This document shows, one piece after another, positions 1 through 6,139 of a stretch of 6,139 nt of DNA. This stretch comes from a virus. Taxonomy: Duplodnaviria; Heunggongvirae; Uroviricota; Caudoviricetes. The notes beneath the pieces are model-generated. The model was not told where the DNA came from and made no database searches. It saw only the letters and a list, made by a program, of their open reading frames with translations. Position numbers and translations under genes: made by a program. The stretch lies in the IMG/VR virus record IMGVR_UViG_2531839449_000026; one strand, 5' to 3'. Numbering within the stretch: position 1 is the first letter of the stretch; each line of letters starts with the position of its first letter.

Positions 1-209
1 TACGCCGCTATACCATGATGATTTATCTCATACCCTTTGAACGTTACCATCTGGCGCGTAATCTCAACTTCGTTCAGGAATCCGCCATCGCATAACTGCC
101 TGGCTATTTTCGATTTGGTCTGGATTATTGGTAGTGCCTGTTCTTTCAAAGCGTATGATATTTGCGCATCCCATGCCTTTTCGAGAATGGCTAATTGTTT
201 TTTATTCAT
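1..209 (-). CDS. Hypothetical protein, partial (first 69 codons; continues past window start). Begins MNKKQLAILEKAWDAQISYALKEQ
   Basis: Own translation of minus strand: ATG at 209..207 shares one base with the helicase TGA (TGATG), no stop before position 1. AAGGAGG lies 6 nt upstream inside the helicase 3' end. Not in ORF track because it has no stop in the window. Function not recognised. Confidence 0.5.
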   Translation of the reverse strand, partial: MNKKQLAILEKAWDAQISYALKEQALPIIQTKSKIARQLCDGGFLNEVEITRQMVTFKGYEINHHGIAA

Positions 210-1645
210 CAGAATCCTCCTTTCTTCTTGGACTGCGGTTCCTCGCGTTCACGTCGGCGCATTTCAGCAGACTGTTGGTCTGTGTCATAAATAGCGCCAT
301 TTGCCTGAATGCAATACACCGTGCCGGTATTGCCATGACGATTGAGACGAAGGATTAGTTCGGTTTCACCATGTGGAACACTGTCATCAAAAGCACCTTC
401 ACGATGGATCCCCACCCAATAATCGCAATCCTGTTCAATCTGCCCTGTATCTCGTGAGTCACTTGGTAATGGGCGTTTATTGGTTCGGCTTTCCAGTGCG
501 CGGTTAAGTTGCGTCAGAAGCACAACAACGCAATCAAGCTCTTTGGCAAGGTTCTTCAGTCCTTTGGTGATCATGCCGTAAGCAAGGTCGTTGCGATCGG
601 CCTTCTCAGCGGTCATTAGTGTCAGGTAATCGACCAGAATCATGCCAACACATCCTTTTTCTCGCTTGATTCGACGGCTTTCGCTGACGATTTGAGCCAG
701 AGATAATCCCGGCGTGTCGTCGATGTAAAGCATGTCGATTTCACTCAAGCGATTGGCTGTTTCGATCGCCCTGTTGAAGTCACCATCGTAATCACCCTGA
801 TAGCCGTCATCGGCGTCATTTGTCGCCGGAAGGTAAAAAATATTCGGGTTAACACCAGACTTCTGCCCTACCAGTTTTTCCAGTATCTGATCACCTGGCA
901 TTTCAAGGCTGAACATCAGAGCGGGCTTTTTCTCATGCACTGCGCAATTGATTGCCATCTGGCTGTATAGCGTCGTTTTCCCCATCTTAGGGCGAGCGCC
1001 AATGACAAACAGAGAGCCTTTCACCAGACCTTTCGGTGACAGCATCCTGTCCAGCGATGGGATCCCTGTGCTCATTCCCCGTTGTTCGCCTGATGGGTCA
1101 AATCGCTTCTCAAGGTCGCTAACCCAGTCTTCCATGACCTCGCCAAATGAGCGAAGGCCGCGACGCGATCCGGTTTTTGCATGGTCTGTCAGTTGCGTGA
1201 AAATCGCCTGAATAGCTTCGTACTTCTGCGTCGCAGTCATTCCGTTGCGGGAATAGAGCAATTCCGTCGCTTCAGTCATGCGGTTGATGGCGTAGCGTTC
1301 CATTGCGGTTTCGCGAACCTGCATTGCATAGGCAACGATGTTTGCGGCGCTCGGCGTGTTCTTTGCGATCTCAGCGATATAAGCAAAACCGCCAACAGAC
1401 GCCGTTAACGATTTACGCTCCAGTTCATCGAAAAGCGTCAGGCCATCTACTGGCTTTTGCTCCCGGTGCATTCTGGTTATTTCTTCGAAAAGGATTTTGT
1501 GTGGTCGGCTGTAAAATGAATCGGGCTTCAGCATCGCCAGAACTTTCTGGACGCGCTCACTGCTGTCATCATCCAGAAGCAATCCACCAATCTCCGCCTG
1601 CTCTGCCTCGATGCTATGGGGCGGCGCATAAAAATTATCGGTCAT
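209..1645 (-). CDS. DnaB-family replicative DNA helicase (phage P22 gp12-type)
   Basis: Translation has Walker A GARPKMGKTT, FSLEMP, YIDD, ILVDYLTLM, LTQLNR and IEQDCD motifs that align with E. coli DnaB (recalled from memory). The ORF track extends to GTG at 1660; I prefer ATG at 1645..1643 (MTDNFYAPP), which has GAGGGTG 7 nt upstream and overlaps the O-like stop by 11 nt. Confidence 0.85.
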   Translation of the reverse strand: MTDNFYAPPHSIEAEQAEIGGLLLDDDSSERVQKVLAMLKPDSFYSRPHKILFEEITRMHREQKPVDGLTLFDELERKSLTASVGGFAYIAEIAKNTPSAANIVAYAMQVRETAMERYAINRMTEATELLYSRNGMTATQKYEAIQAIFTQLTDHAKTGSRRGLRSFGEVMEDWVSDLEKRFDPSGEQRGMSTGIPSLDRMLSPKGLVKGSLFVIGARPKMGKTTLYSQMAINCAVHEKKPALMFSLEMPGDQILEKLVGQKSGVNPNIFYLPATNDADDGYQGDYDGDFNRAIETANRLSEIDMLYIDDTPGLSLAQIVSESRRIKREKGCVGMILVDYLTLMTAEKADRNDLAYGMITKGLKNLAKELDCVVVLLTQLNRALESRTNKRPLPSDSRDTGQIEQDCDYWVGIHREGAFDDSVPHGETELILRLNRHGNTGTVYCIQANGAIYDTDQQSAEMRRREREEPQSKKKGGF

Positions 1646-2534
1646 CGTGTTCACCCTCACGAACTTTCAGGTAGGTATTGTCGTTAAGCAGGAAATCAAA
1701 TCCCTTTTTGTGCCAGACGGTTCCGCGCTGATGGTTTGGGCGCTCTTCGAACATCCATCGGCAATTTTCGCCTACGTAGCTCAAATAATTTCTCCAGTCC
1801 TGCATCGTGAACCCATGCCCGTCAAGCTGGCGGGTTATCACTCCGGCTTTGCGCCAGAACGTTCGGATCTGGTTTTTACGCTTGTCATTCAGTGCGCGGA
1901 TTTTTGGCGCTTCAGGAAGGATTTCGTGGTAAGCATCGACAACATCCTGACAGCTAACGGAAGGTTTTTTCTTGTCAGACTTTTTGTCTGCTGCGGTACT
2001 CTCTAATACGTCAGTATTAGAGATAATATTATTATATTCTTTATCTGTGGTAATTTGCTGGTAATCTGCCGGTACAGTATTGCTTGCAGGCATTGGTATT
2101 GCTGGCTTTGAGGTGGTAATTTGCTGGTAATCTGCTGGTACAAAATTTGACTGATAATCGTCATATTTCTCTACCGAGAAAACTGAGAATTTACCGTGTG
2201 AAACCCAGTCAATCATGCCGAGTTTTTTGAACTTTCTAAGCAGGTACTGAACGCGATCTGGTTTGAGTCCTGTTTCAAACGCCAGAGAGTTTCTACCGCC
2301 AAGTAGCTTCCCTCTGCCTACCAGAATTTCTCCTGCGTCAGTCATTACATACTCAGGCGTATGCTTTGCTTTGAGGATTAAGTGAACCCACAGATGCGCA
2401 GCTTCTGCGTCCTTGTAAAACGGCACATCCATAATTTTACGGTGCAGCAAGGCATACCCCTTACCGCTGCTTTGATGCGGTTGTTGTAGCCTTCTGGCCT
2501 CTCTGGCTTCGGCTAGATTAGATATGTTACTCAT
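1635..2534 (-). CDS. Replication initiation protein, lambda O-like / P22 gp18-like, with origin iterons inside the coding sequence
   Basis: 299-aa ORF immediately upstream of and overlapping the helicase. Its linker region (residues 131-164) is encoded by tandem DNA repeats next to an AT-rich tract, as in the lambda O/ori arrangement. Family assignment rests on synteny (cII - O - helicase) and architecture, not on a search. Confidence 0.75.
2005..2142. other. Putative phage origin of replication: AT-rich tract (about 2005..2046) plus two 30-bp direct repeats (2047..2076, 2113..2142), each made of two 11-bp-phased GGTAATnTGCnGGTA iterons
   Basis: Seen directly: gtggtaatttgctggtaatctgccggtaca at 2047..2076 and gtggtaatttgctggtaatctgctggtaca at 2113..2142 (one mismatch), with a degenerate ggtattgctgg at 2095..2105. 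The flanking stretch agataatattattatattctttatc is AT-rich. In the O-gene transcription direction the iterons precede the AT-rich tract, as in lambda ori. Confidence 0.6.
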
Positions 2535-2673
2535 GACCTTTCTCCTTCTGCATCAGCTTCACTTTTTCCAACTCAGCCCGGAATCGACCAGGCTGCTTGA
2601 AGCTGGACAGGAAGCGATCACGTAGTATGTGTTTGTGAATTTTGTCCTGGTAAGGACTGAGTTGTTTTGTCAT
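2527..2673 (-). CDS. Small hypothetical protein, 48 aa ([48 protein letters not shown]), between cII and the O-like gene
   Basis: Own translation; absent from the ORF track, presumably for length. AGGAG lies 5 nt upstream of the ATG at 2673..2671. The stop at 2529..2527 overlaps the O-like start at 2534, suggesting translational coupling. No family recognised. Confidence 0.45.
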
Positions 2674-2707: not shown

Positions 2708-2986
2708 TCAGGCCTCGAAGAATTCGCCGTTCTTCGGGGCTTTTTCTTTTGTCAGCATTCTGGCTACTTTCTTAGCCAGTTCCGCCAACTCCTCGTCTTC
2801 AACACCCCATTCAAGAACAGCCAGAAGCATTCCCATTTTTGGGATGAAGCTGTCTTTCCATCGCGAAATTTGCGATTCATTAATTCCTAACGCGTCAGCA
2901 ACCTTTCGCTGGCCACGTACAGCAATTCGGTTCAGGATGTTGCTTGTAATTGCATTCGCTTTCTTGCGAGTACTTGTAAGTTGCAT
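2708..2986 (-). CDS. cII: CII-family transcriptional activator
   Basis: 92-aa product aligns with lambda CII as recalled, including the SQISRWK and [10 protein letters not shown] blocks. The 38 bp upstream (2987..3024) match my recollection of the lambda cII translation-initiation region (CATTCAATCAATTGTTATCTAAGGAAATACTTACATATG). Confidence 0.9.
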
Positions 2987-2996: not shown

Positions 2997-3078
2997 TTCC
3001 TTAGATAACAATTGATTGAATGTATGAACCGCCCCGGAAATCCTGGAGACTAAACTCCCTGAGAAAGAGGTAAACAGG

Positions 3079-3405
3079 ATGACTAAAAATACTCGTTTTT
3101 CCCCCGAAGTCCGTCAGCGGGCGATTCGTATGGTTCTGGAAAGTCAGGATGAATATGACTCACAGTGGGCGGCAATTTGTTCCATTGCCCCAAAGATTGG
3201 CTGTACGCCGGAGACTCTGCGTGTCTGGGTTCGCCAGCATGAGCGGGATACCGGGGGCGGTGATGGTGGGCTCACCAGCGCTGAACGTCAGCGTCTGAAA
3301 GAGCTGGAACGTGAAAATCGTGAACTGCGCCGCAGTAACGATATCCTTCGCCAGGCTTCCGCTTATTTTGCGAAGGCGGAGTTCGACCGCCTCTGGAAAA
3401 AATGA
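3079..3405 (+). CDS. IS629-like transposase OrfA (helix-turn-helix / leucine-zipper subunit)
   Basis: 108-aa ORF with GAGG 8 nt upstream of the ATG. Ends in a leucine-zipper-like [29 protein letters not shown] typical of IS3-family OrfA. Overlaps orfB in the -1 frame. Confidence 0.9.
3397..3402 (+). other. Probable -1 programmed ribosomal frameshift site (AAAAAA run at the orfA/orfB overlap)
   Basis: Six A residues sit just before the orfA TGA (3403..3405), with orfB open in the -1 frame from 3402. IS3-family elements make an OrfAB fusion by slippage on A-rich heptamers (established); the exact heptamer here is inferred. Confidence 0.45.
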
Positions 3406-3914
3406 TGCCACTGCTGGATAAGCTGCGTGAGCAGTACGGGGTCGGACCGGTATGCAGCGAACTGCATATTGCCCCGTCAACGTATTACCATTGTCAGCAA
3501 CAGCGACATCATCCGGATAAACGCAGTGCCCGTGCGCAGCACGACGACTGGCTGAAGAGAGAGATACAGCGCGTATACGATGAAAATCATCAGGTGTACG
3601 GTGTGCGTAAAGTCTGGCGTCAGTTGTTACGGGAAGGAATCAGGGTGGCCAGATGTACAGTGGCACGTCTCATGGCGGTTATGGGACTTGCCGGTGTTCT
3701 CCGGGGTAAAAAGGTCCGTACGACCATCAGCCGGAAAGCCGTTGCCGCAGGCGACCGCGTAAACCGTCAGTTCGTGGCAGAACGACCTGACCAGCTGTGG
3801 GTGGCTGATTTTACTTACGTCAGCACATGGCAGGGCTTCGTCTATGTGGCGTTTATCATTGATGTGTTTGCCGGATACATCGTGGGGTGGCGGGTCTCAT
3901 CGTCTATGGAAACG
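3402..3914 (+). pseudogene. IS629-like transposase OrfB, 3'-truncated (only the first Asp of the DDE triad region is retained)
   Basis: Translation contains DQLWVADFTYV and then leaves the transposase sequence after SSSMET; the ORF ends at 3953 in non-IS sequence (PGRCLRQSRMAQ*). The downstream HHSDKGSQY-type and Glu-bearing regions expected in an intact IS3-family OrfB are missing. Confidence 0.8.
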
Positions 3915-5483: not shown

Positions 5484-5793
5484 GCGAAATTAATTATCAG
5501 GCACTGCGTGAAAAGGCAGAGAAAGCAACTAAAGGAAGCTACATCGTAGGGCATACATCTGTTAACCAGCACGGCAATTTAACAGGAGTTTTTGTTTGCC
5601 AAAAATGGAAAGGAGAACCCGGTGGTGTGATTGCGGAATGTCATGTTAACTGCCTGGTTGAAACAGATGTTCAGGCTTATGCAAACGCTGAATTTATTGC
5701 TGCCTTTAATCCAAATGTTGCGCTGGCGCTTCTGGATGAACGGGAAAGAAACCAGCAATACATCAAACGCCGCGACCAGGAGAACGAGGATAT
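5480..5793 (+). pseudogene. Ead/Ea22-like phage early protein gene, interrupted by IS insertion at 5794
   Basis: GTG start with AAGGAGG upstream. The N-terminus [19 protein letters not shown] matches my recollection of Ead/Ea22-like proteins from enterobacterial prophages. After ...QENEDIE the frame runs into the IS inverted repeat ([14 protein letters not shown], stop at 5840..5842). Confidence 0.55.
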
Positions 5794-6139
5794 TGAACCG
5801 CCCCGGAAATCCTGGAGACTAAACTCCCTGAGAAAGAGGTAAACAGGATGACTAAAAATACTCGTTTTTCCCCCGAAGTCCGTCAGCGGGCGATTCGTAT
5901 GGTTCTGGAAAGTCAGGATGAATATGACTCACAGTGGGCGGCAATTTGTTCCATTGCCCCAAAGATTGGCTGTACGCCGGAGACTCTGCGTGTCTGGGTT
6001 CGCCAGCATGAGCGGGATACCGGGGGCGGTGATGGTGGGCTCACCAGCGCTGAACGTCAGCGTCTGAAAGAGCTGGAACGTGAAAATCGTGAACTGCGCC
6101 GCAGTAACGATATCCTTCGCCAGGCTTCCGCTTATTTTG
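5794..6139 (+). mobile_element. Second IS629/IS1203-like copy, left end (continues past window end), same orientation as the first
   Basis: 346 bp identical to 3025..3370, beginning TGAACCGCCCCGG. Confidence 0.85.
5848..6139 (+). CDS. IS629-like transposase OrfA, partial (3' end beyond window)
   Basis: Same sequence as orfA at 3079; the ATG at 5848 is 54 nt from the IS end, as in copy 1. Confidence 0.85.

Follow-up and report, generated by a model that had tools for sequence, protein, structure and literature searches.

A probable theta origin built of helix-phased 11-bp iterons within the O-like initiator gene of an HK022-type lambdoid prophage

The origin of phage lambda consists of four 18-19-bp iterons in gene O, an AT-rich region of 38-40 bp and a palindrome. 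In the iteron origins of plasmids the repeats are bound by initiator monomers (PMC5043065), and in oriL of the Bacillus phage SPP1 the AB boxes, which the replisome organiser G38P binds, lie within gene 38 beside an AT-rich DUE (PMC5737612). Closer to the locus analyzed here, gene 18 of phage L carries six imprecise 11-bp repeats regarded as the likely origin (PMC8022706), and genetics cited in the same paper indicate that the replication region of L functions solely as a complete module. Public phage records carry corresponding annotations: rep_origin features lie on the homologues of Sf6 and L, the rep_origin feature of HK620 (AF335538) covers the same interval as the element described below, and the misc_binding features 'ori iteron 1' and 'ori iteron 2' of VT2-Sakai (AP000422) map exactly to positions 2113-2142 and 2047-2076, respectively, of the sequence studied here. 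The origin is thus already known, annotated in these records and recognized by analogy more than 20 years ago, the GenBank features and the assignment in the L paper being themselves drawn by analogy. In the literature searched, we found no binding or origin-mapping experiment on HK022-type origins. A study of O iterons in Stx phages covers lambda-type O proteins, and Sakai, HK022 and P22 go unmentioned in it.

We analyzed a stretch of 6,139 nt, hereafter the window, whose copy of the element lies inside a Stx1 prophage of E. coli O111 that IS1203 has damaged (Table 1). The arrangement of this locus suggests, with a probability that we put at about 0.85, that positions 2000-2142 are the vegetative (theta) origin of a lambdoid replicon of the HK022/HK620/VT2-Sakai type, placed in the inter-domain linker of its own initiator. 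The locus shares with HK022-type phages the homology of the initiator, the positions of the annotated repeats, the 3 + 3 spacing of the units and a DnaB-like gene directly downstream. The same element is found in HK022, HK620, VT2-Sakai and Stx2 phage 86, in which the O gene is 98.9-99.9% identical and a DnaB-like helicase gene follows downstream in each, as in the window.

Table 1. Positions of the candidate origin, the initiator gene that contains it and the neighbouring helicase gene in the window.
Feature	Position	Strand	Details
DnaB-like replicative helicase ('P' gene of HK022-type phages)	209..1660	-	Pfam DnaB E 4e-29, DnaB_C E 2e-60
O-like replication initiator gene, 299 aa	1635..2534	-	ORF; PHROG 345 'replication initiation O-like', E 4.7e-88
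Initiator C-terminal, presumed partner-binding domain	1635-1999		~aa 179-299
Initiator linker containing the candidate origin			~aa 131-178
Initiator N-terminal putative DNA-binding domain	2145-2534		~aa 1-130
Perfect palindrome	2000..2023	.	10-bp arms TCTCTAATAC/GTATTAGAGA, 4-nt loop TGAC (coding strand)
AT-rich tract, presumed DNA-unwinding element	2024..2043	.	GC 0.225 (40-nt windows over 2000-2059)
Iteron block 2	2044..2076	-	'ori iteron 2' of VT2-Sakai
Block 2 units (coding strand)	2066-2076, 2055-2065, 2044-2054		TGTACCgGCAG, ATTACCAGCAA, ATTACCACAGA
Inter-block spacer, 33 bp	2077..2109	-	length constant, sequence variable
Iteron block 1	2110..2142	-	'ori iteron 1' of VT2-Sakai; tandem 11-bp units
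Block 1 units (coding strand)	2132-2142, 2121-2131, 2110-2120		TGTACCAGCAG, ATTACCAGCAA, ATTACCACCTC

A repeat search of the window revealed direct repeats at 2047-2081 and 2113-2147 with 91% identity across 35 nt, the 30-bp cores of which (2047-2076 and 2113-2142) differ by a single mismatch at base 2070 and start 66 bp apart. Tandem Repeats Finder reported a period of 11 at 2043-2074 (3.0 copies) and at 2114-2140 (2.5 copies), and GGTAATNTGCNGGTA occurs four times (2049, 2060, 2115 and 2126) against 0.01 expected, a count that none of 200 shuffles reached. Each block holds three 11-bp units, giving six in total arranged head-to-tail in two triplets, and the spacing from block to block, 66 bp, is exactly 6 x 11. 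The preliminary description of this DNA had placed two 30-bp direct repeats 66 bp apart, with an AT-rich tract beside them and a duplicated 10-residue peptide encoded in the linker of the O-like protein. The repeats are present as placed, with one mismatch, the low GC content of the neighbouring tract agrees with the description, and the ORF at 1635-2534 on the minus strand does encode two copies of the peptide; of its repeat units the 11-bp period held, while their number is three per block and not two. The palindrome, which is part of the same element, was absent from that description. The repeat search gave no inverted repeats within or between the two blocks, and no further exact copies of the units, which might have served as operators, were found outside the array in the whole window. 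The start of the spacer (2099-2109; AAAGCCAGCAA) agrees with the unit, in phase, at 8 of 11 positions and, judged by this resemblance, may be a vestigial fourth unit; the C at offset 64 is nearly invariant across related loci.

The initiator shares 98% amino acid identity with O of HK022 and 99-100% with O of VT2-Sakai, Stx2 phage 86 and CP-1639, and its true homologues further include 'gp18' of L, ST64T and SE1. RefSeq labels it 'hypothetical protein', and an annotation model for the initiator and origin of HK022-type replicons would be useful. Its N-terminal part matched DnaD-like helicase-loader PHROGs (E 4.5e-21 to 5.7e-08). The initiator gave no match to Pfam PF04492 (Phage_rep_O) even at E <= 10, a family to which P22 gp18 scores E 6.9e-38; the N-terminal domain reached PF09681 (Phage_rep_org_N) at E 0.097 and 13.1 bits, below the cut-off of 23.3, and no Rep-family Pfam domain was found in the protein. 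Remote homology to lambda O, suggested by a full-length profile comparison (96.8% probability), was dropped because this value came from one member of the alignment, Erwinia phage EhrS59, whose C-terminal domain is lambda-like; hhalign with the N-terminal domains only gave 3% probability against both lambda O and P22 gp18. A single-sequence AlphaFold model, chosen because the homologues listed by a protein search were near-identical, was poor (pLDDT 60.8) and contains an HTH-like helix pair at residues 81-88 and 92-104; a Foldseek search of the PDB with this model returned nothing below E 0.4, the weak top hits being CRP and MarR-type proteins. A helix-turn-helix or winged-helix fold is a candidate for the N-terminal domain. 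The helicase ORF overlaps the end of the O-like gene, with the RefSeq start at position 1645 of the window, and its product is presumed to be the partner of the C-terminal domain of O. Across loci, the type of the initiator C-terminal domain tracks the downstream partner, lambda-P versus DnaB-like.

The copy in the window differs from those of HK022-type phages in one private substitution in an iteron core, in its IS1203-disrupted prophage and in the missing immunity region. The substitution, base 2070, lies in the first unit of block 2 (unit 4) and changes CCA to CCG, so that five of the six units in the window keep the CCA core, which is otherwise invariant (305 of 312 units across related loci). 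Over 900 bp it is all that separates the gene from O of Stx2 phage 86; a stretch that includes it was matched exactly by none of the complete E. coli genomes, and the nearest complete genome carries a different base here. Given that the region upstream of cII is replaced by IS1203, with cro, cI, N and the rightward promoter absent from the prophage, and that one unit reads CCG, the origin is probably silent here. We consider the chances about even that in this genome the element has ceased to fire and is a relic, irrespective of its role in intact phages. These losses and the altered unit 4 speak for a relic, while the O-like and helicase ORFs are intact, and phage 86 has the other five units, the AT-rich tract and the palindrome in identical form. 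It is also possible that read-through from the IS or from other promoters reaches the region, and one changed unit in six may be tolerated.

Between the last unit and the palindrome, all 52 loci compared carry a tract of 11-26 nt (median 21), in which A and T make up 0.89 of the bases on average. Folding of the palindrome as DNA gave -8.6 kcal/mol (z = -4.6). A perfect stem of 9-10 bp was present in 55 of the 56 loci examined, built from 19 different arms; L, Sf6 and HK75 share the arms of the window (TCTCTAATAC). In the alignment 97% of cells were paired and all 10 pairs had changed on both sides, with a covariation score of 0.864 compared with 0.20 for shuffles and at most 0.21 for slid controls. 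Among 23 distinct variants there were no one-sided changes in the 10 pairs, and the only two G-U cells fell in the outermost pair. These alignments indicate that the structure of the palindrome is conserved and its sequence is not. A hairpin or cruciform in DNA is the form that we favour. That the palindrome acts instead in RNA, as an antisense terminator or an mRNA hairpin, or as the site of a co-evolving dimeric protein, seems improbable to us. A consensus scan did flag it as terminator-like on the plus (antisense) strand, and the record of phage L carries automatic antisense terminator calls at 798-840 and 845-891, just downstream of the origin. However, G-C pairs make up only 3 of the 10, and the tail, TAATATTATT, makes a poor U-tract; the lack of one-sided, G-U type changes fits a need for pairing in both DNA strands and would be uncommon in an RNA helix. 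Rfam gave no match in the origin region, and in the lambda origin, too, a palindrome occupies this position. Were it a protein site, co-variation through 19 arms of unrelated sequence would be required.

Comparison of related phage and prophage loci showed six units at identical positions in 52 of 60, with unit cores at +28, 39, 50, 94, 105 and 116 nt from the KYDDYQ motif in these 52. Identity at a lag of 11 was 0.68 versus about 0.2 at other lags. Within a specificity type, divergence per site was 0.18-0.37 in the spacer and 0.04-0.09 in the units, i.e. the units diverged 4-8 times more slowly, and at third codon positions they were 3-5 times less divergent than the spacer. DnaA boxes were considered and rejected: the last unit of some relatives (GTGTCCACA) agrees by eye with TTATCCACA at 7 of 9 positions, and the agreement is inconsistent, the unit of the window reaching 6 of 9. 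The Salmonella phages L and ST64T (gene 18) and phage Sf6 (gene 43) encode a homologous initiator of about 66% amino acid identity with repeats TGTCCAACGGA (PMC8022706). Their geometry is identical to that of the window, the six units forming two triplets at a distance of 66 bp that precede an AT-rich tract and then a palindrome, while the unit sequence differs (TGTCCAACG in L versus TTACCAGCA in the window) together with the matching part of the N-terminal domain, and therefore a different initiator-origin specificity is expected. Across loci the iteron type tracks the N-domain subfamily.

Natural variants carry three or four exact 66-bp blocks, and the copy number of the block varies between strains. 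Such variation would also suit units that bind the O-like protein or another factor for regulation (autoregulation, copy-number pairing or titration), with the true start of replication elsewhere, all the more as plasmid iterons also exert control by handcuffing (PMC5043065). We give this explanation only a slight chance: wherever the units occur, an AT-rich tract and a palindrome follow them in the order found in lambda, the L replication region behaves as a self-contained specificity module (PMC8022706), and the window holds no extra copies of the units; in addition, regulation and origin function are compatible.

Since 11 is not a multiple of 3, successive copies of the unit fall in three different reading frames, and what is maintained is therefore the DNA repeat. 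Units of one block lying in different frames share an identity of 0.719, which fell to 0.451 after synonymous recoding, and only 2 of 15,600 recodings reached the observed value. The linker peptide differs between phage types, while the 11-bp period of the DNA and the positions of the units are invariant. According to the preliminary description, selection on the protein only would have left a conserved peptide with freely varying synonymous sites; the opposite was found, with a varying peptide and constrained third positions. Together, these data indicate that the duplicated linker peptide is a by-product and that the linker tolerates whatever the iterons encode in three frames. That the repeat is a duplication of the peptide alone, perhaps as a docking motif, with the DNA playing no role, is very improbable, for although the peptide copy is exact and a duplicated peptide of some kind occurs at the linker of every homologue, the peptide differs completely between types over a fixed DNA period, the reading in three frames leaves no repeat internal to the peptide, and the periodicity is destroyed by recoding.

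In the mechanism that we propose for the origin, the N-terminal domain of the O-like protein would bind the units. Because the units run head-to-tail at about one helical turn each, copies of O would probably align next to each other along a single face of the helix, and not as dimers on dyad sites as lambda O does. In relaxed B-DNA (10.5 bp per turn) 66 bp correspond to 6.3 turns, and the two triplets would therefore share one face only on underwound or wrapped DNA. With both triplets occupied, the DNA may then be bent or wrapped in an O-some-like complex, which on negatively supercoiled DNA would open the adjacent AT-rich tract, after which the C-terminal domain would recruit the DnaB-like helicase that the phage itself encodes in the next gene. 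Bordering the unwound region, the palindrome would probably form a hairpin or cruciform in the DNA. A further proposal, which we hold as tentative and on balance unlikely, is that an initiator fold unrelated to lambda O, binding six phased 11-bp repeats head-to-tail in plasmid style, is combined in this widespread replicon family with a sequence-independent dependence on a hairpin or cruciform by the unwinding tract. If this is true, the hairpin, with its at least 19 variants and compensatory changes and its presence in lambda too, would point to a general, unexplained structural step in the firing of lambdoid origins; its candidate roles are helicase loading, priming, or formation of a structure detected by origin-sensing defence systems such as Lamassu.

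Current understanding is unchanged by this analysis, given that the origin had been recognized by analogy. Many Shiga-toxin-converting phages, and other lambdoid ones, of E. coli, Salmonella, Shigella and Klebsiella replicate by means of the HK022-type replicon, and knowledge of the origin and its specificity class helps to predict which prophages are still able to amplify after induction, raising toxin gene dosage, and which replicons compete for one initiator. The locus also illustrates, in clear textbook fashion, how a cis-acting DNA signal dictates protein sequence, its 11-bp unit being read in three frames.

Among known systems, P22 and other lambdoid phages had been suggested as the comparison for the origin. 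The annotations of VT2-Sakai and HK620 coincide with the element, and P22 proved to be the wrong comparator: its gp18 is of the lambda-O type (PF04492) with unrelated iterons of about 20 bp. In P22, too, the iterons are followed by an AT-rich tract. The iteron origins of plasmids (P1, F, RK2, pSC101 and R6K) share with the window helix-phased direct repeats beside an AT-rich element. Plasmid iterons are typically longer and about two turns apart, and the plasmid Rep initiators belong to a different family and are encoded beside the origin, not across it. SPP1 resembles the window in having the origin within the initiator gene, direct repeats with an unwinding element (PMC5737612) and a phage-encoded helicase. 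The N-terminal domain bears a weak resemblance to Phage_rep_org_N, far under the Pfam threshold, and to the DnaD-like PHROGs; the repeat sequences of SPP1 are unrelated to those of the window, and SPP1 has a separate loader, G39P. With respect to lambda, the partner there is P together with host DnaB, whereas in the window it is presumably the phage DnaB-like helicase, and the dyad-symmetric iterons of lambda are bound by O dimers, whereas the window carries contiguous 11-bp direct repeats without dyad symmetry. The N-terminal domain lies outside the Pfam Phage_rep_O family, unlike lambda-O-type proteins, and the earlier expectation of a specificity unlike that of lambda is supported. The lambda pattern of iterons inside the initiator gene, likewise proposed in the preliminary description, is borne out by the layout. 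In both lambda and the window the origin lies between the N- and C-terminal domains of a modular initiator, the former domain serving origin recognition and the latter partner recruitment (PMC3349717, PMC5043065), roles that are predicted for the window from sequence, and in both the iterons are followed by an AT-rich tract and then by a palindrome with a 4-nt loop, the arms of which measure 12 bp in lambda.

The O-like gene contains two 30-bp direct repeats, 2047-2076 and 2113-2142, with a single mismatch between them and a start-to-start distance of 66 bp, equal to six 11-bp units. Tandem Repeats Finder returned period-11 arrays in both blocks, and the pattern GGTAATNTGCNGGTA occurs four times where 0.01 is expected, a count reached in 0 of 200 shuffles. 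The preliminary description of an origin-like iteron array with 11-bp phasing, an AT-rich neighbourhood (GC 0.225 in the adjoining DNA) and a 10-residue peptide encoded twice by the O-like ORF was borne out, except that it had placed two units in each 30-bp repeat; each block instead holds three 11-bp units. A repeat search of the window showed that these are contiguous direct repeats lacking dyad symmetry. The spacer's opening 11 bp, 2099-2109 (AAAGCCAGCAA), are in phase with block 1 and share 8 of 11 positions with the unit, and the C of this segment is nearly invariant across the family; judged by its sequence, the segment could be a fourth unit that is weak or vestigial. The palindrome that follows the AT tract folds as DNA at -8.6 kcal/mol (z = -4.6).

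Coordinates of the origin elements and neighbouring features
Feature	Position	Strand	Basis or remark
DnaB-like helicase gene	209-1660	-	ORF and Pfam annotation
O-like gene, 299 aa	1635-2534	-	ORF
Palindrome	2000-2023		perfect 10-bp arms, 4-nt loop
AT tract proper	2024-2043
Iteron block 2	2044-2076		unit 4 at 2066-2076
Spacer	2077-2109
Iteron block 1	2110-2142
DUF2740 gene	2527-2673	-	ORF and Pfam annotation
cII	2708-2986	-	ORF and Pfam annotation
IS1203 (IS629-type, IS3 family) copy 1, truncated	3025-3914		upstream of cII
ALIL (IS frameshift pseudoknot)	3360-3476		Rfam
IS1203 copy 2	5793-6139		start near 5793

Identity of the O-like gene to its counterparts in VT2-Sakai, Stx1/Stx2 converting phages, Stx2 phage 86, CP-1639, mEp235, HK620 and HK022 is 98.9-99.9%. 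Comparison with annotated origin regions revealed two misc_binding features in the VT2-Sakai record (AP000422), labelled 'ori iteron 1' and 'ori iteron 2', that correspond exactly to 2113-2142 and 2047-2076 and name 'O protein' as the bound moiety. The HK620 record has a two-part rep_origin covering the same span as the blocks, the Sf6 record a rep_origin described as 'repeat region reminiscent of the phage lambda origin; similar to phage HK620', and the phage L record a 'putative origin of replication' at the equivalent place. The phage L paper regards six imprecise 11-bp repeats within gene 18 as the likely origin, and according to genetic evidence that it cites, the replication regions of L and P22 are exchangeable solely as whole modules (PMC8022706). 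A literature search for experiments on initiator binding or origin mapping in the HK022/VT2-Sakai-type initiator-origin family returned none. Public annotation and published work already record the feature; what is added here is detail and not a new kind of system, namely the geometry shared across the family, the reading of the unit in three frames, the covariation of the palindrome and an initiator domain unlike lambda's.

The comparison covered 10 phage homologues plus 51 prophage loci taken from bacterial assemblies sampled at one genome per species, with protein identities of 25-99%. The six unit cores lie exactly at +28, 39, 50, 94, 105 and 116 nt from the KYDDYQ motif in 52 of 60 usable loci, and 305 of 312 units have CCA at positions 5-7. 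By the bases around CCA the units are of types TGCCAAC (18 loci), GTCCAAC (10), GTCCAGC (8), TACCAGC (7, the window included) and a few others. An 11-bp unit is not a whole number of codons, so its copies are translated in all three frames, and the peptide consequently lacks an internal repeat and is wholly different between types; in phage L the repeated TGTCCAACGGA reads C-P-T-D-V-Q-R-M-S-N. Lag-11 identity within blocks was 0.68 versus about 0.2 at other lags, and unit identity within blocks was 0.719 versus 0.451 after synonymous recoding of the same peptides, the observed value being reached by 2 of 15,600 recodings. Within a type, per-site differences were 0.04-0.09 in units and 0.18-0.37 in the 33-bp spacer (0.04-0.14 versus 0.20-0.39 at third-codon positions). 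Selection on the protein only would conserve the peptide and leave synonymous sites free, whereas the opposite was seen in peptide types, recoding and third-codon divergence. Together, the existing annotation and the comparative tests support the interpretation of lambda-pattern iterons inside the initiator gene.

In some E. coli and Salmonella prophages the 66-bp stretch of iteron block and spacer is present in three or four exact copies rather than two, so that the family is polymorphic for iteron copy number; initiators of these variants have 321 aa (protein P0002) and 343 aa (P0001; prophage locus L067:1501-2532), 22 aa more per extra copy. Distant relatives from Spongiibacteraceae, Elusimicrobia and Bacteroidia (L058, L061, L062) have five or six contiguous GAACA-type units at 11-12 bp, about 20-100 nt past a conserved [YW]..[YWH]Q motif. 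Units are spaced by 12 bp in loci L059, L035 and L036, and in a Prevotella locus (L063) ten 12-bp units lie in frame and encode TNEQ repeats.

A perfect 9-10-bp stem with loop T[A/G]A[C/A] follows the AT tract (11-26 nt, mean AT content 0.89) in 55 of 56 loci examined, and its arms take 19 different sequences. Across 23 distinct sequences, 97% of cells were paired, two-sided changes occurred at 10 of 10 pairs and one-sided changes at none, with a covariation score of 0.864 versus 0.20 when shuffled and at most 0.21 with the partner slid. Given that G-U-type intermediates are absent, the pattern argues for a constraint on DNA, in which both strands pair, rather than on RNA; Rfam had no match at the palindrome. 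Palindrome type does not track iteron type across loci, which is what mosaic exchange at the origin would produce. A consensus scan scored the palindrome and following T-rich run (2000-2033, +) as terminator-like on the antisense strand, and the phage L record has automatic antisense terminator calls directly downstream of its origin. An antisense ORF of 119 aa (1647-2006, +) within the O-like gene, which the Stx1 converting phage record lists as 'ORF b66, hypothetical protein', is unlikely to be a real gene.

One N-terminal domain and origin module was found joined to three C-terminal domains, lambda-O-like, HK022-like and P22-gp18-like (loci L053, L054, L056 and L010 versus L016, L020, L046, L050 and L051). 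Iteron type tracks the N-terminal domain subfamily, including a predicted helix-turn-helix segment (residues ~80-112), an association confounded by shared ancestry. C-terminal domain type tracks the downstream gene: a lambda-O-like C-terminus is paired with a Phage_lambda_P loader (L053, L054, L056, EhrS59), and HK022-type or P22-gp18-type C-termini with a DnaB-like helicase. The C-terminal exchange point is at or near the origin, and this modularity fits the classical scheme in which one half of the initiator recognises the origin, the other recruits the partner, and the two meet at the origin.

The O-like protein matches PHROG 345 ('replication initiation O-like'), its N-terminal part also matches DnaD-like helicase-loader PHROGs, and its likeness to Phage_rep_org_N is weak (E 0.097). 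NCBIfam and Pfam hold no model for this initiator, which is named by a PHROG only, occurs on more than 1000 contigs and is labelled 'hypothetical protein' by RefSeq/PGAP in O111 genomes. Homology of the N-terminal domain to lambda O was rejected: the N-domain-only profile comparison gave 3% probability, and the 96.8% obtained with full-length profiles was due to the lambda-like C-terminus of a single member. Structure modelling from a single sequence gave a poor model, and a fold search with it was uninformative.

The minus strand of the window carries early-right genes of a lambdoid prophage. Among complete genomes, those of E. coli O111 strains are nearest to the window, and in them the region belongs to an Stx1a prophage without cro, cI, N and the rightward promoter. 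IS1203 copy 1, joined at about 3904-3914 to a 5'-truncated Rad52-family recombinase gene, stands in place of the cro/cI/N immunity region, and the promoter normally driving and activating the replication module has therefore been lost in that prophage. Base 2070 (C on the + strand; A to G at gene position 465) is the sole mismatch between the 30-bp blocks and turns the otherwise invariant CCA core of unit 4 into CCG, a synonymous proline codon. It is the only difference from Stx2 phage 86 in the 900-bp O gene and one of three from the closest O111 genome in 5,795 bp. None of 228 complete E. coli genomes holding the 89-nt stretch 2024-2112 matched it exactly (best identity 98.9%), and by this comparison the change is private to this copy. 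The unit 4 change and the promoter region loss together suggest that the origin in this prophage is silent or decaying.

By analogy with lambda (PMC5043065; PMC3349717), we infer a scheme in which copies of the O-like N-terminal domain would occupy the six units, the complex would distort negatively supercoiled DNA so that the AT tract opens, and the C-terminal domain would then recruit the phage DnaB-like helicase. Judged by sequence, the element is a putative origin of the HK022/VT2-Sakai type whose architecture is common with lambda: the lambda ori has, in the same order, four iterons, an AT-rich tract and a palindrome with 12-bp arms and a 4-nt loop. Unlike the lambda O-type family, the window's initiator falls outside Pfam Phage_rep_O (no PF04492 match at E <= 10, compared with 6.9e-38 for P22 gp18). 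Lambda uses dimers on symmetric sites, whereas plasmid iterons are bound by monomers in helical phase (PMC5043065), and the window's units are likewise phased. Since they are contiguous, repeat at about one helical turn and lack dyad symmetry, head-to-tail binding on one face of the DNA in the manner of plasmid iterons would be more likely than lambda-style dimers.
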